Positions 52,025-64,000 of a stretch of 64,000 bases of DNA are shown in pieces. The position numbers and the translations under genes were made by a program. Where the stretch lies: positions 583,506 to 647,505 of the forward strand of contig JBEKRK010000001.1 of NCBI GenBank assembly GCA_049518795.1, given 5' to 3'. The DNA comes from Sedimentisphaerales bacterium (GTDB lineage: Bacteria; Planctomycetota; Phycisphaerae; Sedimentisphaerales; UBA12454). Each line of letters opens with the position of its first letter. Within the stretch, counting starts at the first letter, position 1. The notes beneath the pieces are model-generated. The model was not told the DNA's origin. It made no database searches and saw nothing but the letters and a program-made list of their open reading frames with translations.

Positions 52025-52456
52025 ATCTGGCTGTTAGAAATAAGGATATGTAAGAATTGACCAATTGGCAAGCAGATTCTCGCGGCCTTACAATTCCAAA
52101 CAGGCTCTCAATAAACTGCCTATTCATCTAAAACAACTACAAGAAAATACTTGATTTCCCTACTTAAATTGCAATAATTGACTATGGAGAATCACAGCAA
52201 AATAGTCTTAGTTATTTGGTATATTGATCTTTTCATCACCCTCCTCCGAAGCCAGATTCTCTATATCTTAGAGGTCTGGCTTTCTTGATAAATTCTAATG
52301 TTAGTTTAGAAAACACAGGTATTTAAGGCAATTATCATCTATCAATTTGCAACTAATAAAAGACAATAAAAATCTTTAATCAATAATTTTTTTTAAAACA
52401 ATATTGTAATTTATTGTTTTTTGGCTACAATTTCGTATATTTTTAAAGGAAAAGAT

Positions 52457-53986
52457 ATGGCCGTAAAATTCTCCAAAGAAGTGCAATTATTAGGCGATAT
52501 GGCAAGGGCATTTGCCGAGTCACTCGACCTTGAGCTGACCCTCAAGGCCATCCTGAAATCTCTGGACACCCATGTCAAACTGCAAAAAGGGACTGTTACT
52601 TTACTCGACCCTGCAACAGAAACCATTAATATCAAAGTAGCTCACGGCCTGAGTGAAAAGTCAAAACAATTGGGCAGCTATAAAATTGGCGAAGGCATCA
52701 CCGGCACGGTCGTTCAAACAGGCAGGGAAATTGTCGTGCCGGATATTTCCAAAGACAGCAGATTCCTTCATAGAACACGTTCCAGAAAAGAAACACAGGG
52801 CAGACAAATTGCCTTTTACTGTGTGCCGATAAAACTCGAAGGCGCAACAATCGGTGCACTGAGCGTTGACAGGCAGGTTCAGAAAGGCGACGATGCAGAG
52901 GCATATCTAAGTCTTCTGAATATTATCGCGACAATGGTCGCACAGGCCGTAAAATTGAACAAGCTTGTCGAATCCGACAAAAGACAGCTCTCCGAAGAAA
53001 ATCTGAGGTTAAGACAGGAGCTAAAAGCACATTTCAATATAAACAATATGGTAGGCACAAGCAATGCAATGAAACAGGTTTATCGGCTTATTGAACAAGT
53101 GGCCGACAGTAATGCTACCGTGCTGATTCGAGGCGAAAGCGGCACAGGTAAAGATCTTGTTGCCCACGCGATACACTATAACAGCAGCAGAGCGAACAAA
53201 CCCTTTGTAAAAGTAAACTGCACCGCCCTGCCGGAAACCCTGCTCGAAAGTGAGCTTTTCGGCCACGAAAAAGGGTCTTTTACAGGCGCAACAGAAAGAA
53301 AAATTGGCAGATTTGAAAGAGCCAACGGCGGCACCATTTTCCTCGATGAGATAGGCGATTTTTCCATAAATCTCCAGATCAAGCTGCTGAGAATTATCCA
53401 GTTCAGAGAATTCGAACGGGTTGGCGGGACAGAAACCATAAAAGCAAATGTCCGAATCATCGTCGCTACGAATAAAAATCTTGAAGAGCAAATCAAGGAA
53501 AAACTCTTTAGAGAAGACCTTTATTACAGGATAAATGTTTTTCCGATTTACCTGCCGCCGCTGAGGGAGCGAAAAGACGATATTATGCTTCTGGCAGATT
53601 ATTTTCTCGAACAATTTTCAAGAGAAAATAACAAAAGAATTACACGCATTTCAACGCCGGCAATTGAAATGCTTACGAGCTATCACTGGCCCGGAAATGT
53701 CCGAGAGCTTGAAAACTGTATCGAACGGGCTGTTCTTCTATGTAATGACGAAGTCGTGCGTTCAGAACATCTGCCCCCATCATTGCAAATGATTAAAAAA
53801 AGTGATATGCCCTTAGGTCGGTCGCTTACCGAAATTATCGAAAACAAGGAAAAAGAAATCATTATCGATTCTCTTAAAAAACATAGCGGCCAGCAAAGAA
53901 AAGCAGCAAACGAGCTTGGTATTACGGAACGTATTCTCGGATACAAAATTAAAAAATACGGCATCTTTCCCAAAATGCTCTCGTAA
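52457..53986 (+). CDS. NifA-family sigma54-dependent activator (GAF-AAA+-Fis HTH)
   Basis: GAF (YKIGEGITG...[11 protein letters not shown]), [40 protein letters not shown] and C-terminal HTH. ATG at 52457 after AAGGA (track start 52421). Confidence 0.93.
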
Positions 53987-53994
53987 ATTTTAAA

Positions 53995-54036
53995 TACGAA
54001 AATGTCCACAAAAAACCATACTTATACATTATTGTA
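53995..54036. promoter_or_regulatory. Paired TACA-N4-TGTA boxes (candidate activator enhancer) upstream of the TorF operon
   Basis: TACGAAAATGTC (53995-54006) and TACATTATTGTA (54025-36), 30 bp apart. Confidence 0.65.
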
Positions 54037-54127
54037 TAAAATTAAAAAAGCGTTCATATCGTAGCCATCTCATCATAACATCTTCTTTTGCAAACATTTA
54101 TATCAAATTTATAAATTTTTAATTATC

Positions 54128-54143
54128 TGGCACGGATATTGCT
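54128..54143 (+). promoter_or_regulatory. Sigma54 (-24/-12) promoter
   Basis: TGGCAC-GGATA-TTGCT. Confidence 0.9.
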
Positions 54144-54214
54144 TTATATTATATGAGATTTATGATTTCTGTATTTAAATAAAGGATTTGTCATTTTTTT
54201 ACTGGAGGCAAAAA

Positions 54215-54997
54215 ATGAAAAAGTTCGTCATTGTATTTATGGGTTCTTTTATGATTTACTCAACTGTCCTGGCCGACGCCAATTCAGTCGTCCCGGACGA
54301 AGCAAAGGACAAAATCGCTTTCACCATTACCAGTGATTTTTACAGTAGGTATATATGGCGAGGTCAGGTGATTACTAATGGCGCTGTTTTTCAGCCGAGC
54401 ATCGGCGCCAGCTACAAGGGATGGACTGCCAATATCTGGGGTAATGTGGATATGACAGATTATCGCAATCAAAGCGGCGAATTTACCGAATACGACCTGA
54501 CACTCGATTACAGCAACAAACTCACCGAAAAAGTTGGCTATTCTATTGGAACGATTCATTATCACTTCCCGAGTTTCTCCTATACGGATACAACTGAAAT
54601 ATACTGGGGATTCAATTTTGACTTGCCGCTAAGTCCTGCCATTAAAGTATATCACGGGCTTGGTAATGAAAATGGAACTTATGTAAATTTCAGTATAGGA
54701 CATACAATCGAAAAAGTTATGACATTTACCGAAAACTGTTACTGTAATTTGCAATGGGGTGCATCGCTCGGCTGGGGTAACGGGACATATAATAGGGATT
54801 ATTGGGGCGTGAATGGGTCCCATCTGAATGATTTGGCATTTACCCTCGGTTTGCCTATATGTTTCCCGGGCGGATGGACTGTGAGTCCAAGCATTAATTA
54901 TGTAACGCTGGTTGATGGAGCGATTCGCAGCTCCGATGTTTATGCCAGGTCAAGCGACTATTTCTTTACAGGCATCCGCATCAGCAAAAGTTTTTAA
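54215..54997 (+). CDS. TorF-family putative porin (type commonly found next to glnK-amtB)
   Basis: Signal peptide; SDFYSRYIWRG, FQPSI, EYDLTLDY and terminal F. ATG at 54215 after GGAGG (track start 54188). Confidence 0.8.
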   Translation: MKKFVIVFMGSFMIYSTVLADANSVVPDEAKDKIAFTITSDFYSRYIWRGQVITNGAVFQPSIGASYKGWTANIWGNVDMTDYRNQSGEFTEYDLTLDYSNKLTEKVGYSIGTIHYHFPSFSYTDTTEIYWGFNFDLPLSPAIKVYHGLGNENGTYVNFSIGHTIEKVMTFTENCYCNLQWGASLGWGNGTYNRDYWGVNGSHLNDLAFTLGLPICFPGGWTVSPSINYVTLVDGAIRSSDVYARSSDYFFTGIRISKSF

Positions 54998-55064
54998 ATG
55001 TCTTAAACGAAAATTTGGTGAAAAAATCCAAACAAAGAAAAAATAAAAATTTGGAGAAATTATT

Positions 55065-56942
55065 ATGCCGTCTGAAAATAAAATAATCGAACCACAAATA
55101 AAGGCTACGTTAGGCCTGTTTGGCGCTACCGCAAACGCTATGGCACTGATTGCGCCCGGGGCATTCCTGTGGATTACTTATCAACTGCAAGCTGCTGCCA
55201 CATCTCCGAGCGGGGCATCGGTTTCAAGCGATATCTGGGCGGGAATCGTTGTTGCATTGGCTATCTGTTTCCTTACCGCCATTTCCTACTCGGAACTTGC
55301 AAAATTATATCCGCAAGCGGGATTTGCAAGCGTCACATATTTTGCAGAAAAAGCCTTTCTCGACAGCAAAGGTGTAAAAAGAGGAACGCCTACCTCTTTA
55401 GCCCGTATGGCGAAAATAGTTACAGGATGGGCCGCCCACCTTTTCTACTGGGTCTATCCGGGAGTTATGGTGGCTATGATGGCCAACCTTATCAGCTATC
55501 TCTACACAGCATTCACCGGACATACCTTAACAACGGTGATGCTGGTTGTGGTCAGCACTCTATTCGCGGGCATCATAGGATTCGTAGCCTATCGCGGTGT
55601 AACCGGCTCGACAAAGACCTCAATCTGGATTAACGTGATTCAGCTTGTTACGCTGGTTGTATTTACCGTTCTTGCAATCTGGTATCGCACTTCTAACCCT
55701 CAAGGTGCGACAAACTGGACATTCACCGGCGGCTGGGATGTAATCCGTCCGCATTCGCTCAACGGCATCCTGATTCAATCTACCCTTGCCATCCTGATAT
55801 TGGTTGGCTTTGAAAGCTGCACCGCCCTTGCCGCCGAGACAAAAGACCCAAAAACAACGATTCCCAAGGCCATCATTTTGTCCCTGGTGATTCAAGGATT
55901 GTTCGCGTATCTGCTGGAGTATTTCGGTGCCGGCTTTATGATTAACGATAAACTGGCCGGCACGGCCGCCGGACAACCGGTAACCGGAATGGCCGCCGCA
56001 GCCGCTTCAAGTGCACCTATCGGAGACCTTGCTCAGCTTATCGGCAACAGCATCGTGCCGGGACTTGGCTTTGGTTTGATGATAACTATGGCAATCACTG
56101 TGGCAATTGCCGTAATCGGCACAACCTTAAGCTGTATGAACACCGCTGTGCGGGTAACCTGCGGTATGGCGGAAGACCTTGAATTGCCGAAATACCTGAG
56201 TTTCATAAGCTCACACAGCACGCCTCATACGGCATTGTGGACGCTGGTAATCATTACTTCCATAATCGGCGCCATAGGCGTTCAATCCGTAGTAGGTCTT
56301 ACAGGCATCACGCTTGCCTCGAACTTCGGAACCTTTGTGCTCTACGGCCTAACCTGCGTGTGGACCATTATCGCTTTCAGGAAACGGCTTGACTTCAGCA
56401 TCTTCAAACACGGAATTATTCCGGTGCTGGGAGTAATTACCAACGTCATTATGCTTATAGCGATTATTTATCTGTATGCTATCGGAAACGCAGATTCGAA
56501 AAGAGAAGCAACGATTTGTTTCTATATCTGCGGCGGATGGGCCATTATGAGTTTCCTGTATGTCGCTGTCAGCACGGTGAGCAAAACTTATGATTTAAAG
56601 ATGATTTCAGTTGTCATTCGCCCCGAAAGACTCAACATCCTGACCGAGGTTCTTAAAGACGAAGAGCTTCTTATGGGAATGACTGTAACAAAAGTAAAAG
56701 GATTTGGCAGACAAAGAGGCCACATAGATTCGGACGACTCAAAGCCTGTATCCGATATGACATATTTTATTCCCAAAATGCGGGTTGACGTCCTGGTAAG
56801 GAGCTGGGATGTTCCGTATGCAATGGGTATTATGAGAGAAGTCTTATATACCGGCGAAGCCGGGGACGGAAAGATTTTTGTGGTTGACGCGTCAGAAGCA
56901 ATGCGAATACGCACTGGAGAAAAAGGCGTTGCCGCTATCTAA
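55065..56942 (+). CDS. APC-superfamily amino acid permease fused to a C-terminal P-II domain
   Basis: About 12 TM helices (ALIAPGA, GFESCTALAAETKDPKTTIPKA), then from about 56595 KMISVVIRPE...KGFGRQRG...PKMRVDV...TGEAGDGKIFV...MRIRTGE. Confidence 0.9.
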   Translation: MPSENKIIEPQIKATLGLFGATANAMALIAPGAFLWITYQLQAAATSPSGASVSSDIWAGIVVALAICFLTAISYSELAKLYPQAGFASVTYFAEKAFLDSKGVKRGTPTSLARMAKIVTGWAAHLFYWVYPGVMVAMMANLISYLYTAFTGHTLTTVMLVVVSTLFAGIIGFVAYRGVTGSTKTSIWINVIQLVTLVVFTVLAIWYRTSNPQGATNWTFTGGWDVIRPHSLNGILIQSTLAILILVGFESCTALAAETKDPKTTIPKAIILSLVIQGLFAYLLEYFGAGFMINDKLAGTAAGQPVTGMAAAAASSAPIGDLAQLIGNSIVPGLGFGLMITMAITVAIAVIGTTLSCMNTAVRVTCGMAEDLELPKYLSFISSHSTPHTALWTLVIITSIIGAIGVQSVVGLTGITLASNFGTFVLYGLTCVWTIIAFRKRLDFSIFKHGIIPVLGVITNVIMLIAIIYLYAIGNADSKREATICFYICGGWAIMSFLYVAVSTVSKTYDLKMISVVIRPERLNILTEVLKDEELLMGMTVTKVKGFGRQRGHIDSDDSKPVSDMTYFIPKMRVDVLVRSWDVPYAMGIMREVLYTGEAGDGKIFVVDASEAMRIRTGEKGVAAI

Positions 56943-56971
56943 ATCCGAAAGAATCGTGAAAGGAAATAAAA

Positions 56972-57313
56972 ATGAAAAAAATTGAAGCTATTGTTCGACC
57001 CGGCAAGGTCGCCAGTGTGTGTGCCGTTTTGGAAGAAATCGACTATCCCGGCCTTACAATCACCGAAGTTGAAGGACATGGAAAGCAAAAAGGTCTCGAA
57101 CAACAGGTGCGAGGCAAAACTTACAAAGTGGGTCTGCTTACCAAGGCAAGGATTGAAATAGTGGTCAAAGACAGCGATGTTGACAAGGTAATCAATGCCA
57201 TACGAGAAACAGCTTTCACCGGCAAGGTCGGCGATGGTAAGATTTTTGTTTATCCCGTTGAAAATGCGGTGAGGATACGCACCAATGAACGAAGCGAGGC
57301 AGCATTAGTATGA
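56972..57313 (+). CDS. P-II family nitrogen regulator (retains Tyr51)
   Basis: MKKIEAIVRP, GHGKQKG, RGKTY51, TGKVGDGKIFV and VRIRTNE. Confidence 0.95.
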   Translation: MKKIEAIVRPGKVASVCAVLEEIDYPGLTITEVEGHGKQKGLEQQVRGKTYKVGLLTKARIEIVVKDSDVDKVINAIRETAFTGKVGDGKIFVYPVENAVRIRTNERSEAALV

Positions 57314-57416
57314 CCAGCTCAGAACCGGCAGCATCAATACAAGAATAGCTTAAACTTATGGAATAAGATAACAAAACTACCGGATAACACAGATATAAAC
57401 AGTCGTCAGTATAGAC

Positions 57417-57476
57417 GGCACCACTTCCAAAAGTGCCTTGAGATCAGGGGCCCGATTTTTCGGGTCCCTGATTCTC
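57417..57476 (+). ncRNA. Candidate 3'-UTR sRNA / structured element, copy 1
   Basis: GGCAC-CACTTCCAAAA-GTGCC hairpin plus a roughly 15-bp hairpin; repeated at 61612-61671; first 12 nt are complementary to the amtB RBS regions. Confidence 0.6.
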
Positions 57477-57655
57477 TAATATAAATCTCAAAAATACATC
57501 AGACAAAAAACGCTAAATCAAAGCAAATCAAAACTGTTGCATTGCAGACAGGATTTTTGTATTATTACGGTTTTGAATAAACGTATAAAACAGGTGGTTT
57601 TGTTTTATGGGCAATCTTTGTCTATTCCCTGTATGTTCTCCGAAAAGAAAAAAGG

Positions 57656-59647
57656 ATGAAATCGGATTCTGATAGCAAATTAACTTTTACTGAAACAGTT
57701 ACCAGAAAAATATTTGGCGCTCCTCGCGACATTCAGGACCCTCGCATTTTCCACAAATTATCTCTTATCCCCCTGCTTGCCTGGATAGGATTAGGCGCAG
57801 ACGGACTTTCCTCGTCATCTTATGGCCCGGAAGAAGCGTTCAGAGCATTGGGTTCTCATGTGTATTTATCTTTATTTCTTGCCATAGCGACTGCCCTGAC
57901 CGTAGCGATAATTTCTTACGCATATTCAAGAATTATTGAGCATTTTCCGCACGGGGGCGGCGGCTATATAGTTGCAACCCACATGCTCGGTAAAAAAGCA
58001 GGCGTAGTCTCCGGATGCGCATTAATTGTCGATTATATATTGACTATTACCGTTTCAATAACCTCGTGCGTTGATGCATTGTTCAGCTATCTGCCGATGG
58101 AATTCCACAGGTTTAAGATTTTGACCGCATCCGGTTTAATTATATTGCTGATAATTTTTAATATCAGAGGGGTTAAAGAATCCATAATGATGCTTGCGCC
58201 CATCTTTATTACTTTCATAATCACACATATATTGATGCTCGGCTATGGCATATTAAGCCACACTGACAGGATAATGCCGGTCGTGAATAATTTTCATAGT
58301 AGTTTTGCCAGGGACATTTCCACAATAGGCGGTATGGGCATTTTTCTTCTCTTTTTGCGTGCCTATTCACTCGGCGGCGGAACATATACCGGAATAGAGG
58401 CTGTTTCCAACGGCCTGCAAATTATGAGAGAGCCGAAAGTGCAAACCGGCAAACGAACTATGTTGTATATGGCGACATCCCTCGCCCTGACAGCAGGAGG
58501 ACTTTTTCTATGTTACCTGATTTGGGAAGTTCGGCCTCTTTCTGGAAGAACACTTAATGCAATCCTTGCCGATAGCCTTTTCGCAAATTGGCGGCTGGGT
58601 CACTGGATAGCGTTTATAACTATTTTCTCAGAAGGTGCACTTCTTCTGGTTGCCGCCCAGACAGGATTTGTTGACGCCCCGCGTGTTATGGCAAATATGG
58701 CAGTTGATTCCTGGCTGCCGCACCGATTCGCGTCTTTTTCGGAACGTCTGACAATGCGCAACGGCGTTTTAATGATAGGAATATCAGCCATTGCCATACT
58801 GTTCTATACACACGGCTCGATATCAGCGCTTGTGGTTATGTATTCGATAAACGTATTTCTTACGTTCTCGCTTTCAGAGTTCGGAATGTCGCGGTTCTTT
58901 ATAAAAAACCACAGGACAGAGGCCAAATGGAAACAGCATCTTAGCGTTCACCTTACCGGCCTTATTCTCTGTTTGACAATTCTGGTAATAACAACCTTTG
59001 AAAAATTCAGCGAAGGTGGCTGGATGACGCTTGTTATAACGTCATTCCTGATAATGCTCTGCTACCTGATTAACAGCCATTATTCAAAGGTAAAAAACGA
59101 ATTAATGCGGCTGGACAAACTGCTTGCGAGAATGCCGATATCAGGTTCGCCTAATACCGAGCCGATTAACAAAGAAAATATGACCGCAATACAGCTTGTC
59201 AGCACATACAACGGTTTTGGGGTTCATACGCTGTTTACAATTATTCGTTCCTTTCCGGGGTTATATAAAAACTTTGTGTTTGTTTCTGTTGTCGTCATAG
59301 ACCAGGGCGCATTTAAAGGCAAAGAAGGATTAGAGGATTTGAAGAAATCCACGAAGGAATCTCTCAGGAAATACGTTGAACTTGCCCGGACACTCGGGTT
59401 CCCCGCCGAATACAGAATGGCGACTGGAACTGACCTTGTGGAAACGGCAACTGAATTGGTTAAGGAAGTCTCAGAGGAATTTAACAAATCCACGATTAAA
59501 TCCACAGTTTTTTCAGGACAGCTTTCTTTCCAGCTTGAGAAATCTTATCATAGACTGCTTCACAACGAGGCGGCATTTGCCATTCAGCGGCGGCTGCAAT
59601 GGAACGGCATCGCAAATGTTATATTGCCCATAAGACTGGAAATGTAA
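57656..59647 (+). CDS. APC-family permease (YdaO/KimA-like) with cytoplasmic C-terminal domain
   Basis: GADGLSSSSYGPEEAF, FPHGGGGYIVA, YTGIEAVSNG, QTGFVDAPRV and YSINVFLTFSLS. Confidence 0.8.
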   Translation: MKSDSDSKLTFTETVTRKIFGAPRDIQDPRIFHKLSLIPLLAWIGLGADGLSSSSYGPEEAFRALGSHVYLSLFLAIATALTVAIISYAYSRIIEHFPHGGGGYIVATHMLGKKAGVVSGCALIVDYILTITVSITSCVDALFSYLPMEFHRFKILTASGLIILLIIFNIRGVKESIMMLAPIFITFIITHILMLGYGILSHTDRIMPVVNNFHSSFARDISTIGGMGIFLLFLRAYSLGGGTYTGIEAVSNGLQIMREPKVQTGKRTMLYMATSLALTAGGLFLCYLIWEVRPLSGRTLNAILADSLFANWRLGHWIAFITIFSEGALLLVAAQTGFVDAPRVMANMAVDSWLPHRFASFSERLTMRNGVLMIGISAIAILFYTHGSISALVVMYSINVFLTFSLSEFGMSRFFIKNHRTEAKWKQHLSVHLTGLILCLTILVITTFEKFSEGGWMTLVITSFLIMLCYLINSHYSKVKNELMRLDKLLARMPISGSPNTEPINKENMTAIQLVSTYNGFGVHTLFTIIRSFPGLYKNFVFVSVVVIDQGAFKGKEGLEDLKKSTKESLRKYVELARTLGFPAEYRMATGTDLVETATELVKEVSEEFNKSTIKSTVFSGQLSFQLEKSYHRLLHNEAAFAIQRRLQWNGIANVILPIRLEM

Positions 59648-59689
59648 AAAATCAATTGTTTCAATTCATTTTTACATACCCAAAATAAA

Positions 59690-59730
59690 TACAAAAATGT
59701 ATATTTTAAAGCAATATATACAAAATTGTA
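59690..59730. promoter_or_regulatory. Paired TACA-N4-TGTA boxes upstream of amtB1
   Basis: TACAAAAATGTA (59690-701) and TACAAAATTGTA (59719-30). Confidence 0.72.
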
Positions 59731-59821
59731 AAATATTAATAAATAAATTTTTAAATTCTTTCCTTCCTTAACTTCCTTTAAAAACAACAGGTTATAACGA
59801 TTTTTTAAAAAATAAATAAAT

Positions 59822-59837
59822 TGGCACAACTATTGCA
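59822..59837 (+). promoter_or_regulatory. Sigma54 promoter for amtB1-glnK1
   Basis: TGGCAC-AACTA-TTGCA. Confidence 0.92.
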
Positions 59838-59902
59838 TATAACAACAATGAATAAATTACCAACGAAAACATTTGCATATAAATTGAAAGGAAGTGGTGC
59901 TA

Positions 59903-61228
59903 ATGAAGGTTAGTTTACACAAATTGATATTCTGTATAGTATTTCTGTCTTTCACAGCCAGTCTCTGTCTTGCAGCAGATTCACCCGCCATACCTAATAA
60001 AATAGACAGCGGCGATACTGCCTGGGTGCTTATCTCAACAGCTTTGGTTATGATAATGACGCCTGGGCTGGCATTCTTCTATGGCGGCCTTGTCAGGCGA
60101 AAAAATTATCTCAGCATTCTTATGCAATGTTTCATCGCTCTTGCGGCGTTAAGCATTCAATGGGTATTGATTGGTTATAGTCTATCATTTGCACCGTCAA
60201 ACGGATTCTGGGGCGGTTTTAAATGGTTCGGACTTAATGGAGTCGGATTCGAACCTTACGCCAGCTATAGCGCTACTATTCCGCACCAGGCATTTATGAT
60301 ATTCCAGGCTATGTTCGCAATAATCACGCCCGCCCTTATTATAGGTGCGTTCGCAGAACGAATGAAATTCTCGGCATTTCTGGTCTTTTTACTGCTGTGG
60401 GCGACCTTCGTTTATGACCCGATAGCTCATTGGGTTTGGGGCGTCGGAGGTTGGCTTAGGAATCTTGGAGTACTGGATTTCGCGGGCGGGACGGTGGTTC
60501 ATATAAATGCCGGTATCGCGGCATTAGTTACGGCGTTAATAATAGGCAAAAGGTCGTGCCACGATAAATACGCGGTTGCACCGCATAATCTGCCTTTCAG
60601 CGTTCTGGGGGCAGCGATGCTTTGGTTCGGCTGGTTCGGCTTCAACGCCGGTTCAGCTCTGGGCGCTAATGGTTTAGCTGTCAATGCCTTTGTCGTTACC
60701 AATACCGCGGCGGCAGCGGCTGCCCTGACTTGGGCAATAATCGACTGGATGCTAAACGGCAGTCCGACAATGCTCGGCACTATTTCCGGAGCGGTCGCAG
60801 GACTGGTAGCCATAACGCCTGCCGCAGGGTTTGTCGGTATAGGCGGCGCAATTGGAATTGGTGTAATTGTAAGTATATTGTGCTTCATTGCGGTCAGCTT
60901 TATAAAGCATAAATTCCATTACGACGATTCGCTTGATGCATTTGGAGTTCACGGCATAGGAGGTATGTGGGGTGCAATCGCAACCGGAATATTCGCTACA
61001 AAAGCAGTAAATTCTGCCAGCGCTAATGGTTTGCTCGCAGGCAATCCAAAACAGCTGCTCATCCAACTGGCGGCAACAGCTGCCACTGTTATTTACAGCT
61101 TAATAGCGACATATATCATCTATAAACTCGTTGATATAATAATCGGAGTTAGAGTAACCGATAACGATGAAGCTGTAGGCCTTGACCTGACTCAACATAA
61201 CGAACGTGCCTATACAATGCTCGAATAA
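59903..61228 (+). CDS. amtB: Ammonium transporter 1
   Basis: [48 protein letters not shown] and DAFGVHG. ATG at 59903 (track start GTG 59894). Confidence 0.97.
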   Translation: MKVSLHKLIFCIVFLSFTASLCLAADSPAIPNKIDSGDTAWVLISTALVMIMTPGLAFFYGGLVRRKNYLSILMQCFIALAALSIQWVLIGYSLSFAPSNGFWGGFKWFGLNGVGFEPYASYSATIPHQAFMIFQAMFAIITPALIIGAFAERMKFSAFLVFLLLWATFVYDPIAHWVWGVGGWLRNLGVLDFAGGTVVHINAGIAALVTALIIGKRSCHDKYAVAPHNLPFSVLGAAMLWFGWFGFNAGSALGANGLAVNAFVVTNTAAAAAALTWAIIDWMLNGSPTMLGTISGAVAGLVAITPAAGFVGIGGAIGIGVIVSILCFIAVSFIKHKFHYDDSLDAFGVHGIGGMWGAIATGIFATKAVNSASANGLLAGNPKQLLIQLAATAATVIYSLIATYIIYKLVDIIIGVRVTDNDEAVGLDLTQHNERAYTMLE

Positions 61229-61240
61229 AGGAAACCGAAT

Positions 61241-61582
61241 ATGAAACTGATAATCGCAATAATTCAGCCTCACAGGCTCGAACAAGTAAAAGAAGAGCTT
61301 TATAAAGAAGAAGTCAACCTCATTACCGTAAGCGAGGTTCTCGGCCACGGCAGACAAAAAGGTGTAACCGAAATTTACCGCGGCTCAAAAGAAACAGGTA
61401 ACCTGCTGCGGAAAGTCCGCCTCGAAATAGCGGTAAATGAGAACTTCGTCGAACGGACAATAAAGGCAATAATCGCCGGGGCGAAAACCGGCAATACCGG
61501 CGATGGAAAAATATTCGTTGTGGATCTTCCTGAATGTATCAGAATAAGGACGGAAGAACGCGGCGGTGAAGCAATAGGATAA
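61241..61582 (+). CDS. glnK: P-II protein GlnK1 (Ser49, no Tyr51)
   Basis: Directly follows amtB; [16 protein letters not shown] and [11 protein letters not shown]. Confidence 0.93.
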
Positions 61583-61611
61583 TACCGAACTAAACTGTTG
61601 TTCGTGTAAAA

Positions 61612-61671
61612 GGCACCACTTCCAAAAGTGCCGAGAGATTAGGGAGCCGATTTTTCGTGCCCCTAATTCTC
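61612..61671 (+). ncRNA. Candidate 3'-UTR sRNA / structured element, copy 2
   Basis: First 21 nt identical to copy 1; second hairpin conserved with a compensatory C-G to T-A pair. Confidence 0.6.
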
Positions 61672-61688
61672 TAAAATGTCGCTAAAAA

Positions 61689-61730
61689 TACAAAATTGTA
61701 ATTATCATACCTCTAAATTACAAAAATGTA
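61689..61730. promoter_or_regulatory. Paired TACA-N4-TGTA boxes upstream of amtB2
   Basis: TACAAAATTGTA (61689-700) and TACAAAAATGTA (61719-30). Confidence 0.72.
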
Positions 61731-61808
61731 GTAAGTTGTAGATTGTAAAATAAAACACTAATCACATAAGTATCTTAGTAACCATCACTTATAGTTAAAT
61801 ACGCAGGT

Positions 61809-61824
61809 TGGCATAACTATTGCA
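61809..61824 (+). promoter_or_regulatory. Sigma54 promoter for amtB2-glnK2
   Basis: TGGCAT-AACTA-TTGCA. Confidence 0.88.
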
Positions 61825-61894
61825 CCTAATAATTAAATAAATCTGAATTACTAACTAATACATTAGCATAAAAATAAGAAAGGAAGTGGTGCCA

Positions 61895-63217
61895 ATGAAG
61901 GTTAGTGTTCGCAAACTGGTATTTTGCGCGGTGTTGGTCTGCGCCGCCGTAAGCCTGTGCCCTGCCGAAGGAATATCAACAAACTCCAAAATAGACGGCG
62001 CCGATACCGCATGGGTGCTTATATCGGCTGCACTGGTTATGCTGATGACGCCGGGGCTGGCGTTTTTCTACGGCGGTCTTGTCAGGCGAAAAAATTATCT
62101 CAGCATCCTTATGCAATGCTTCATAGCCTTGGCCGCTCTTAGCATTCAGTGGATAATATTCGGATACAGTCTGTCTTTTTCTCCGGGTAATGGATTTATA
62201 GGCGGCTTACAATGGTTCGGACTTAGAGGAGTCGGACTCGAACCTTATGCTGTTTATAGCGCAACTATTCCGCATCAGGCGTTTATGATTTTCCAGGCAA
62301 TGTTCGCTATAATTACACCTGCACTTATTATTGGTGCGTTCGCAGAGCGGATGAAATTCTCGGCATATCTGATTTTTACGCTGCTTTGGGCGACATTTAT
62401 ATATGACCCGATAGCACACTGGGTCTGGGGCAGCGGCGGATGGCTTAAAAATATGGGTATTATGGATTTTGCAGGCGGCACGGTGGTTCATATAAACGCC
62501 GGCATTGCAGCGTTGGTTACCGCATTAGTAATAGGAAAAAGGTCCTGCTACAATAAATACGCGATTGCGCCGCATAATCTGCCGTTCAGTGTGTTGGGAG
62601 CGGCATTACTGTGGTTCGGCTGGTTTGGCTTTAACGCAGGCAGCGCATTAGCTGCAAACGGCATAGCGGTAAACGCATTTGTTGTTACAAATACCGCAGG
62701 AGCTGCAGCAGCATTAACATGGGCATTGATAGACTGGAAACTTAACGGCAATCCAACAATGCTTGGAACCATATCAGGAGCAATAGCGGGACTTGCGGCA
62801 ATTACGCCAGCGGCAGGATTTGTCGGGGTGGGTGCGGCATTGGTAATCGGTATTGCAGCCAGTATCTTTTGTTTCATTGCCGTCAGTTTTGTGAAACGCA
62901 CATTTCATTACGACGATTCGCTGGACGCATTCGGCGTTCACGGCATAAGCGGTTTCTGGGGAACTTTAGCAACAGGACTGTTCGCATCCAAGGCTATAAA
63001 CCCGGCCGGCGCCAACGGGCTGCTTGCGGGAAACAGCAGGCAATTTTTCATACAGCTTGTCGCGGCAGCAGCAACGGTAGCTTATGCGTTCATTGGCACG
63101 TTCATCATCTACAAAATTATCGATGCGGTCATCGGTGTCAGAGCTACTGAAGAGGAAGAAGCAATCGGGCTTGACCTGACTGAACACAATGAGCGGGCTT
63201 ATACGATGTTAGAGTAA
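61895..63217 (+). CDS. amtB: Ammonium transporter 2
   Basis: Paralog of 59903-61228 with the same motifs. ATG at 61895 (track start GTG 61886). Confidence 0.97.
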
Positions 63218-63234
63218 AAGAAAGGAAATCTGTT

Positions 63235-63576
63235 ATGAAACTGATTATAGCCATAATTCAGCCTCACAGGCTCGAACAAGTAAAAGAAGAGCTTTATAAG
63301 GAAGAAGTGAACCTCATTACTGTAAGTGAGGTTCTCGGCCACGGCAGACAAAAAGGCGTTACAGAGGTCTATCGCGGTATGAGAGAAACAGGCAACCTGC
63401 TGCGGAAAATCCGGCTCGAAATAGCGGTAAATGAGAACTACGTTGAACGGACAATAAAGGCAATAATCGCCGGGGCGAAAACGGGTAATACCGGCGATGG
63501 GAAAATATTCGTTGTTGACCTTCCTGAATGTATCAGAATCAGGACGGAAGAACGCGGCGGTGAAGCTATAGGTTGA
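63235..63576 (+). CDS. glnK: P-II protein GlnK2 (Met49, no Tyr51)
   Basis: Differs from GlnK1 at 5 of 113 residues. Confidence 0.93.
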
Positions 63577-63627
63577 AAAACTCAAAACTAACTAAATTGT
63601 ATTTTTTGCGGACAATTCCGTAATAAA

Positions 63628-63669
63628 TACAATAATGTAGATTTATATGTAAATATCTACAAAAATGTA
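63628..63669. promoter_or_regulatory. Paired TACA-N4-TGTA boxes upstream of glnA
   Basis: TACAATAATGTA (63628-39) and TACAAAAATGTA (63658-69). Confidence 0.72.
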
Positions 63670-63758
63670 TGAACGAAAATTTTTATATTGACTTTGTATG
63701 TATTCGTAATATCTTCTACAATAAGAACCTATGAAAATTTATATATCAAAAAGCTGAT

Positions 63759-63774
63759 TGGTATAGTTATTGCA
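63759..63774 (+). promoter_or_regulatory. Sigma54 promoter for glnA
   Basis: TGGTAT-AGTTA-TTGCA. Confidence 0.8.
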
Positions 63775-63852
63775 TATTAACTTTCAGTAAGTTGCTGTCT
63801 ATATAAAAAGTTATGAATAAAAAACAAGATATTGGTTGAAAGGAAATAAGAA

Positions 63853-64000
63853 ATGACCCCCAAAGAATTTTTTGATTTTTGCAAGAAAAACAATGCCGGG
63901 ATGGTCGATTTGAAATTCGTTGACCTTCTGGGCACCTGGCAGCATTGCACATTCCCGGTGGAATTCCTGGACGAAAAGGCTTTAAAGGAAGGTCTCGGTT
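63853..64000 (+). CDS. glnA: Glutamine synthetase type I, 5' part (runs off window end)
   Basis: Hand translation MTPKEFFDFCKKNNAGMVDLKFVDLLGTWQHCTFPVEFLDEKALKEGLG matches the GSI N-terminus (VDLKF.D..G.WQH). Confidence 0.92.
   Translation, partial: MTPKEFFDFCKKNNAGMVDLKFVDLLGTWQHCTFPVEFLDEKALKEGLG

Follow-up and report, generated by a model that had tools for sequence, protein, structure and literature searches.

A conserved two-hairpin element behind P-II genes of Sedimentisphaerales with a candidate anti-Shine–Dalgarno seed against amtB

Introduction

Among bacterial small RNAs (sRNAs) derived from 3′ untranslated regions (3′UTRs), OppZ and CarZ of Vibrio cholerae are autoregulatory, being co-induced with their operon and exerting negative feedback without a dedicated transcription factor (PMC7398697), and GlnZ originates from the 3′UTR of glnA in Enterobacteriaceae (PMC9731577; bioRxiv 10.1101/2022.04.01.486790). 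Here we describe a structured element that follows two P-II genes of a planctomycete, Sedimentisphaerales bacterium, and carries a 12-nucleotide (nt) segment, hereafter the seed, complementary to the Shine–Dalgarno (SD) region of two ammonium transporter (amtB) genes. Both copies lie in a 64,000-nt stretch of contig JBEKRK010000001.1 (assembly GCA_049518795.1, positions 583,506 to 647,505), referred to as the window, to which all positions refer unless another contig is named. A preliminary description, made from the window sequence alone, had read the element as the source of an sRNA that throttles AmtB translation, an interpretation which we find to be partly supported.

AmtB is known to be controlled transcriptionally, through regulation of the NtrC/sigma-54 type, and post-translationally, through plugging by GlnK. 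In the literature searched at full-text level, we found no report of a glnK-3′UTR RNA, of an amtB-targeting RNA or of an RNA-level brake on amtB translation. A further arrangement relevant to the locus is the fold-back inhibition of the IS10/Tn10 transposase, attributed to work by Davis, Simons and Kleckner in 1985: an upstream segment complementary to the ribosome-binding site (RBS) is reportedly present only in externally started transcripts, which are said to fold and hide the SD, whereas native transcripts start between the two segments, so that fortuitous activation of the transposase is blocked.

Results

A conserved two-hairpin element downstream of P-II genes

The element spans ~85 nt, occurs twice in the window, and consists of a 5′ box, an invariant 21-nt hairpin (hairpin 1) and a long covarying hairpin (hairpin 2) (Table 1). 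Its two-hairpin part had been recognized as a 60-nt unit behind two different P-II genes (57417-57476 and 61612-61671), and all coordinates were confirmed; the element extends, however, ~22 nt further 5′ than had been drawn, into the conserved box TAAACAGTCGTC, and its conservation in relatives had been understated as well. The two copies are identical at 52 of 60 nt, and their opening 21 nt, GGCAC-CACTTCCAAAA-GTGCC, are the same, whereas identity between the two host P-II genes is only 63% at the DNA level and 42% at the protein level; the element is thus conserved far above its host genes. The invariance of the 21-mer and the compensatory pair in hairpin 2 (C57445-G57470 in copy 1, T61640-A61665 in copy 2), both reported previously, were verified in the sequence.

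For both copies, the predicted structure is a weak hairpin of 5 bp and an 11-nt loop, followed by the long second hairpin, with energies of -38.8 kcal/mol (z=-6.8) for copy 1 and -27.4 kcal/mol (z=-4.0) for copy 2. Across 19 copies, both sides have changed at 12 of the 16 pairs of hairpin 2, which nevertheless remains 88.6% paired, with many G-U pairs; none of 500 shuffles matches this pattern. Given such strong covariation and the abundance of G-U pairs, hairpin 2 is a helix of the plus-strand RNA rather than a DNA palindrome. Hairpin 1 evolves differently in the same 19 copies. Its 5′ arm and first seven loop bases, which together form the seed (GGCACCACTTCC), are almost invariant, the seed being conserved in 19/19 aligned copies apart from two single-base changes. 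The 3′ half of the loop, in contrast, varies in both sequence and length (AAAA, TAAA, AACA, TAAATAA, AGTA), and the stem shows a compensatory change from C-G to U-A (in genome G023), a G-U (G013) and an A-C (G007). This combination of a fixed 5′ arm and loop start with a free 3′ loop half is, as judged from the sequences, the signature of a seed region.

The 5′ box, TTAAACAGTCGTCC-GTATAAAA, lies directly 5′ of hairpin 1 at all related loci, after P-II genes of differing lineages, and may be a processing site. Duplex folds of the box against long sequences returned only implausible extended structures and no consistent pairing partner. A sigma-70 promoter inside the box was considered and rejected on reading the sequence, the TTAAAC...TATAAA spacing being only ~9 nt and a start there being expected to clip the seed. 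Similarly, hairpin 1 was inspected for a sigma-54 promoter or an NtrC-type site, but it has no -12 element and the wrong half-site spacing, the true enhancer being TACA-N4-TGTA. A cmscan comparison of positions 54000-64000 with Rfam (E<=5), which the preliminary description had suggested, identified no relevant family; the only two hits were chance snoRNA matches elsewhere in the region.

Elsewhere in the genome, near-identical long hairpins (AATCTCAGGGCCAA...TTGGCCCTGAGA) lacking a U tract are found at two gene 3′ ends, one on contig C4 (minus strand, ~24.6 kb from the contig end) and one on C7 (plus strand, ~65060). They resemble hairpin 2 in style and may represent a repeated terminator-type module.

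The seed matches the ribosome-binding sites of two amtB genes

The exact complementarity of the first 12 nt of hairpin 1 to the amtB2 SD region, and their pairing with the amtB1 site through 11 bp and a G-U, had been noted before and were verified; the amtB2 target ends 2 nt before the ATG. The two sites also come out on top of a genome-wide target scan of the kind proposed earlier. When a 16-nt seed was folded against positions -28..+6 around each of 12,254 candidate starts (as many as four per open reading frame (ORF), with a minimum ORF length of 100 aa), amtB2 ranked first (-26.4 kcal/mol) and amtB1 second (-23.7), compared with a mean of -6.7 and a standard deviation of 2.7. This start-window scan replaced a whole-genome duplex scan with the full 21-mer, which was dropped because long imperfect matches in coding regions dominated its results. 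An exact copy of the 12-mer is present at only three places across the 2.9-Mb genome, namely in the two elements and at the amtB2 RBS, against a chance expectation, by our arithmetic, of ~0.35 at uniform composition. Allowing one mismatch adds amtB1 and three unrelated sites, at least two of them apparently coding.

The seed, CACCACUUCC, resembles the anti-SD CACCUCC, like a variant of it, and the 16S rRNA of this genome ends in ...GGATCACCTCCTTTCT. The seed and the 16S tail have one and the same amtB SD region as their partner, which would put the element in direct competition with the ribosome. The two differ in fit: in a hand alignment, the seed pairs with 12 contiguous amtB bases, whereas the 16S tail encounters a mismatch and a wobble. 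In the same alignment, the amtB site itself, AGAAAGGAAGUGGUGCC, reads as a long SD whose deviations from the canonical complement fall exactly where they make the fit of the seed perfect. With the 16S tail imperfect and the seed perfect on the same site, the seed would therefore be a private anti-SD for one gene family rather than a general one.

In the amtB2 leader starting from the sigma-54 promoter (61830-61915), pairing is possible between ACUAACUAAUACAUU and AAUGAAGGUUAGU around the start codon, although this fold is no better than shuffles (z=-1.4); the pairing is missing in amtB1-type leaders. A conserved leader structure was rejected as the cause of target conservation, because amtB1-type and amtB2-type leaders differ outside the target.

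Distribution and coevolution of element and target

Searches with the 21-mer, followed by a covariance model built from nine copies, detected the element in 11 of the 26 genomes of the family, distributed over three of its seven genera. Outside the family, it was found in only one of 275 searched genomes of the order (G283, from a sister family, with the copy at a contig end), the other 274 being without it; no further copies were present among 101 genomes searched in the family of G283, and none of the target-pattern matches in G283 is an amtB RBS. A metagenome scan for the target followed by an amtB start yielded five more contigs with the element upstream, two of which duplicate family loci. 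A protein search of genome contigs with AmtB2 gave, among the matches listed, only distant relatives with at most 71% identity.

At all mapped loci (18 copies in 11 genomes, and G283), the element closely follows a P-II gene, on its coding strand; within the family, 17 of the 18 copies begin no more than ~25 nt past the stop codon, and copy 1 of the window begins ~80 nt past it. The host P-II genes follow a transporter gene, encoding either a divergent Amt or an APC/P-II fusion. In 16 adjacent pairs, 250-284 nt separate the element from a downstream amtB of the amtB1/amtB2 clade, whose RBS reads (A)AAGGAAGTGGTR, with enhancer and sigma-54 promoter between element and RBS. Alignment of these 16 intergenic regions reveals only a few islands of conservation, which correspond to the 5′ box, AGGCACCACTTCC, GTGCC, the GGG/CCC core of hairpin 2, two enhancer sites, the promoter and GAAAGGAAGTGGTG. 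The longest invariant blocks are the seed AGGCACCACTTCC and the target GAAAGGAAGTGGTG, whereas hairpin 2 and the 3′ half of the hairpin 1 loop vary freely.

Element and target also occur together. In each of the 11 family genomes that carry the element, an amtB RBS contains the target, whereas genomes lacking the element contain few matches to the target pattern, all inside coding sequence. The target is present in 16/16 amtB genes with an element within 300 nt upstream and missing in 5/6 amtB genes of the same clade without an adjacent one. For instance, G001 and G003, which belong to the same genus, carry a single amtB-glnK unit behind the activator gene, with an AmtB 75-76% identical to AmtB2, the ordinary RBS AATAAGGAGAAC and no element; in G002, arrangement and RBS are the same, the AmtB is 92% identical, and the element is again absent. 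Likewise, the first amtB of the arrays in G022 and G013 has no element upstream and an ordinary AAGGAG RBS. The AmtB2 orthologue of G002 (L068, G002:C63, 7368-8606) lacks the first ~30 codons, likely a signal peptide, and lies with a canonical AAGGAG RBS directly behind the activator gene; from the sequence, its 5′ end and leader seem to have been swapped as a unit.

A 9-nt core pairs in 17/17 seed-target pairs and, with G-U allowed, all 12 positions pair in 15/17. In G023 and in metagenome contig L158, a three-sided change (seed GGTACC..., 3′ arm GTACC, target ...GGTACC) keeps both helices, and in G007 both sides have changed (seed GACACC, target GGTGTC). Other variants combine an unchanged seed with C-to-T changes in the target (GCT, GTC, GTT) that keep G-U pairs. 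Overall, 97.9% of cells pair and two pairs have changed on both sides; the observed score is reached by 42 of 500 shuffles, and the covariation between seed and target is suggestive.

The nitrogen island

The two copies are part of an island of transporter and P-II genes (Table 1), which ends, after amtB2-glnK, with an ORF called glutamine synthetase in the matching contig. The island contains four sigma-54 promoters, including one of the form TGGCAT-N5-TTGC which lies, as previously described, between copy 2 and amtB2. The motif TACA-N4-TGTA is found seven times in the window compared with 0.4 expected, each time ~80-130 bp upstream of a sigma-54 promoter, and is conserved in relatives. The adjacent GAF/sigma-54 activator probably uses it as its enhancer. 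Because the motif precedes all four sigma-54 promoters, the island looks like one regulon, in which a single activator appears, from these motifs, to drive all four; for the same reason, the DNA site of the activator is not the 12-mer. The P-II domain of the APC/P-II fusion is located at the C terminus, and in G019 and G015 the same array likewise begins with an orthologue of the fusion (88% identity).

Table 1. Features of the element, its putative targets and the surrounding island in the window
Feature	Position	Strand	Evidence or remark
GAF/sigma-54 activator	52421-53986		Pfam
TACA-N4-TGTA site, single	54025-54036		belongs to promoter 54128
Sigma-54 promoter	54128		
Unassigned ORF	54188-54997		
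APC permease fused to P-II domain, 625 aa	55065-56942		Pfam; free P-II gene next
P-II gene ahead of copy 1, 113 aa	56972-57313	+	Pfam PF00543, E=1.9e-29
5′ box of copy 1, ATAAACAGTCGTCAGTATAGAC	57395-57416	+	columns T..CA.TCG..T..TA kept across 16-19 copies
Hairpin 1 of copy 1, 5-bp stem GGCAC/GTGCC	57417-57437	+	near-invariant in 19 copies
Hairpin 2 of copy 1, 16-bp stem, without U tract	57440-57476	+	fold and covariation
Second APC permease	57656-59647		Pfam; between copy 1 and amtB1
Paired TACA-N4-TGTA enhancer sites, amtB1	59690-59730	+	motif count
Sigma-54 promoter of amtB1, TGGCAC-N5-TTGC	59822-59836	+	motif
Target 1, GGAAGTGGTGCT, SD and spacer of amtB1 (ATG 59903)	59890-59901	+	11 bp and one terminal G-U with seed
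amtB1, 441 aa	59903-61228	+	PF00909, E=4e-134
glnK (P-II) ahead of copy 2	61241-61582	+	PF00543
5′ box of copy 2, CTAAACTGTTGTTCGTGTAAAA	61590-61611	+	conservation among copies
Hairpin 1 of copy 2, bears seed GGCACCACTTCC	61612-61632	+	identical 21 nt
Hairpin 2 of copy 2	61635-61671	+	fold and covariation
Paired TACA-N4-TGTA enhancer sites, amtB2	61689-61730	+	motif count
Sigma-54 promoter of amtB2, TGGCAT-N5-TTGC	61809-61823	+	motif; between copy 2 and target 2
Target 2, GGAAGTGGTGCC, SD and spacer of amtB2 (ATG 61895)	61882-61893	+	exact 12-bp seed complement
amtB2, 440 aa	61895-63217	+	PF00909
glnK after amtB2	63235-63576		no element behind it
TACA-N4-TGTA sites, paired	63628-63669		
Sigma-54 promoter	63759		

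Discussion

We propose that the element is a structured RNA in the 3′UTR of P-II (glnK-type) transcripts, in which hairpin 1 would display the seed GGCACCACUUCC with seven bases in the loop and five in the weak 5-bp stem. Its partner would be the SD and spacer of each amtB paralogue (GGAAGUGGUGCY, with its end 2 nt before the AUG); pairing there would block binding of the 30S subunit and thereby lower AmtB translation. Under one shared activator, transcription through the element would let the anti-SD RNA rise together with the amtB mRNA and cap or delay AmtB synthesis, as in an incoherent feed-forward loop. The effector in trans could be the 3′ end of the mRNA as such or a fragment that would be released near the 5′ box and accumulate as a discrete RNA, in either case without Hfq. 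Judging from the sequences, RNA-RNA pairing between the P-II 3′UTR element and the amtB SD, in trans and in cis taken together, is probable; to Hfq-independent repression of amtB translation in trans we assign a probability of roughly 0.45.

Action in trans is favoured by three elements that keep perfect seeds without an adjacent target. Between copy 1 of the window (genome G000) and amtB1 a permease gene is inserted, so that the target is 2.4 kb and one gene away; copy 1 of G017 is located upstream of a divergent amt gene without target; and copy 2 of G041 (L041, G041:C18, 4189-4512) follows the last glnK of a target-bearing amtB-glnK operon. Downstream of the latter are a sigma-54 promoter and a 702-aa ORF whose RBS lacks the target and whose N-terminus we take, from reading it rather than from a family search, to be that of a type III glutamine synthetase.

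Several observations weigh against repression in trans. A T run was looked for after hairpin 2 and none was found, although hairpin 2 may still mark transcript ends, because long hairpins without a U tract are the commonest kind after long ORFs in this genome: only 53 of 238 strong hairpins in this position have at least five T in the next 8 nt. By this analogy, hairpin 2 may be a 3′-end or terminator-type hairpin. The covariation is thin, with 9/12 seed-target pairs never varying; G041 combines an unchanged seed with a target ending in GCA, a terminal mismatch, and metagenome contig mgL165 (seed GGCAC, target GGTACT) is a counter-example with an internal A-C mismatch at pair 10. The co-occurrence of seed and target partly reflects shared descent, because the two usually share an intergenic block, at a distance of 250-284 nt. 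In most arrays there is no copy behind the last glnK, so the element is not a device of simple operon autoregulation. No match to Hfq (PF17209) was obtained in the 96.7%-complete genome by a search that detected its controls and covered Hfq but not ProQ; dependence on Hfq or ProQ is typical of enterobacterial and Vibrio 3′UTR sRNAs but not universal to the class, an RNase E/G homologue is present in the genome, and a 12-bp contiguous duplex started from a 7-nt loop plausibly forms without a chaperone. Finally, a search for sequencing runs covering the region returned two peat DNA metagenomes only and no RNA runs. The earlier claim that a seed in the P-II 3′UTR pairs with the amtB SD is supported by the invariant blocks, the joint occurrence and the top-ranking targets, whereas the covariation in relatives that it envisaged, visible in G023 and G007, is indecisive in view of the shuffles and of mgL165.

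The closest competing explanation is a fold-back in cis, in which read-through RNAs would carry both the anti-SD and the amtB SD and sequester the latter, while RNAs started at the sigma-54 promoter escape, so that amtB is insulated from read-through. The geometry agrees well with this scenario: at 16/16 adjacent pairs the sigma-54 promoter lies downstream of the seed and 42-83 nt upstream of the target, the 12-bp helix is present in both the minimum free energy and the centroid fold of the 348-nt read-through RNA (window 61583-61930), the target tracks the presence of a nearby element (16/16 against its absence in 5/6 clade members without one), and the elements are missing behind the last glnK of most arrays, where no amtB follows. 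Read-through is plausible given the lack of a U tract after hairpin 2, yet hairpin 2 may well terminate, long hairpins of this kind being common at gene 3′ ends here. The perfect seeds of the three elements without adjacent target speak against cis action, and the benefit of insulation is doubtful because the upstream and downstream units appear to share enhancer and activator. On balance, we regard the cis fold-back as rather unlikely. Somewhat less probable still is that the element is a mere 3′-end stabilizer or terminator module that matches the amtB SD by chance or as a remnant of a small inverted duplication. Hairpin 2 is indeed like other 3′-end hairpins of the genome, some complementarity to strong SDs is expected from a seed that resembles the 16S anti-SD tail GAUCACCUCCUUUCU, and the covariation alone is not significant. 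However, a purely structural module does not require that hairpin 1 be fixed in sequence while hairpin 2 drifts by compensation. Nor does it account for an amtB SD that is off-canonical exactly where the seed fits better than the 16S tail, for the persistence of the core and full-length pairing across genera with AmtB only ~75% identical, or for a canonical SD wherever the element is absent.

The preliminary description had itself raised the alternative that the motif serves as a protein-binding site in double-stranded DNA, usable in either orientation. A regulatory protein, for example a looping repressor, would then bind the 12-mer in opposite orientations on the two sides of the enhancer and promoter, and the RNA complementarity would be a by-product. 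In duplex DNA, a sequence and its reverse complement are one and the same site, the two occurrences flank the promoter region at a distance that varies little (250-284 bp), and hairpin 1 is also an inverted repeat (GGCAC-N11-GTGCC). This idea is weakened because the enhancer is TACA-N4-TGTA, a different motif found at all four sigma-54 promoters, of which two have no 12-mer nearby, and because the structure uses G-U pairs, which exist only in the plus-strand RNA. Hairpin 1 tolerates a G-U in G013 and shows a compensatory U-A in G023, both of them features of RNA. Moreover, the spacing is near-continuous (250, 251, 256, 257, 262, 269-274, 283 and 284) without helical phasing, the target keeps a fixed distance from SD to ATG, and orphan elements lie kilobases from any partner site. 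We consider a DNA site very improbable.

A more specific version of pairing, to which we give tentative credence, below that for trans repression as such, is that the arrays of the family are wired by a private SD/anti-SD pair, a look-alike of the 16S tail outcompeting ribosomes only at the re-tuned amtB SD. If true, this would amount to Hfq-free, RNA-level hierarchical or feed-forward control among ammonium-transporter paralogues on top of GlnK plugging. It would also be the first case of amtB translation being regulated by an RNA, and the element would count among the first functional sRNAs of Planctomycetota. More generally, repression by the element would add a third layer of AmtB control and extend 3′UTR-borne riboregulation to an uncultivated, Hfq-lacking planctomycete lineage. 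The compact 12-nt seed/target pair comes with natural compensatory variants, and the new covariance model can be used for annotating such metagenome-assembled genomes.

Of the systems compared here, the IS10 fold-back is identical in the geometry of element, promoter and target, and the predicted fold shows the helix; it differs in that element and target here both belong to a single co-regulated nitrogen island, in that the anti-SD forms part of a conserved hairpin at a distance of 250-284 nt, and in that there are orphan copies. GlnZ is likewise a 3′UTR-borne RNA with a nitrogen-regulated host gene of the sigma-54/NtrC type and acts by base pairing during nitrogen limitation, so that the analogy drawn in the preliminary description holds for the kind of mechanism. 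It does not extend to the host gene, glnA, to the Hfq dependence of GlnZ in view of a genome without an Hfq match, or to the targets, which are carbon-metabolism genes such as sucA rather than an ammonium transporter, and GlnZ has no sequence or structure similarity to the element. OppZ and CarZ share with the element the position in the 3′ end of a transporter operon, the terminal hairpin and a seed against an RBS region within the same functional unit, but depend on Hfq and on processing by RNase E, target cistrons within the mRNA from which they derive and involve Rho-dependent termination (PMC7398697). The element, by comparison, resides in a genome without an Hfq match, its usual target is the first gene of the next operon, an amtB paralogue, and it has no sequence homology to either RNA. 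Collectively, the mechanistic class is known from OppZ/CarZ and GlnZ, whereas the RNA family, host gene, target and phylum are new.

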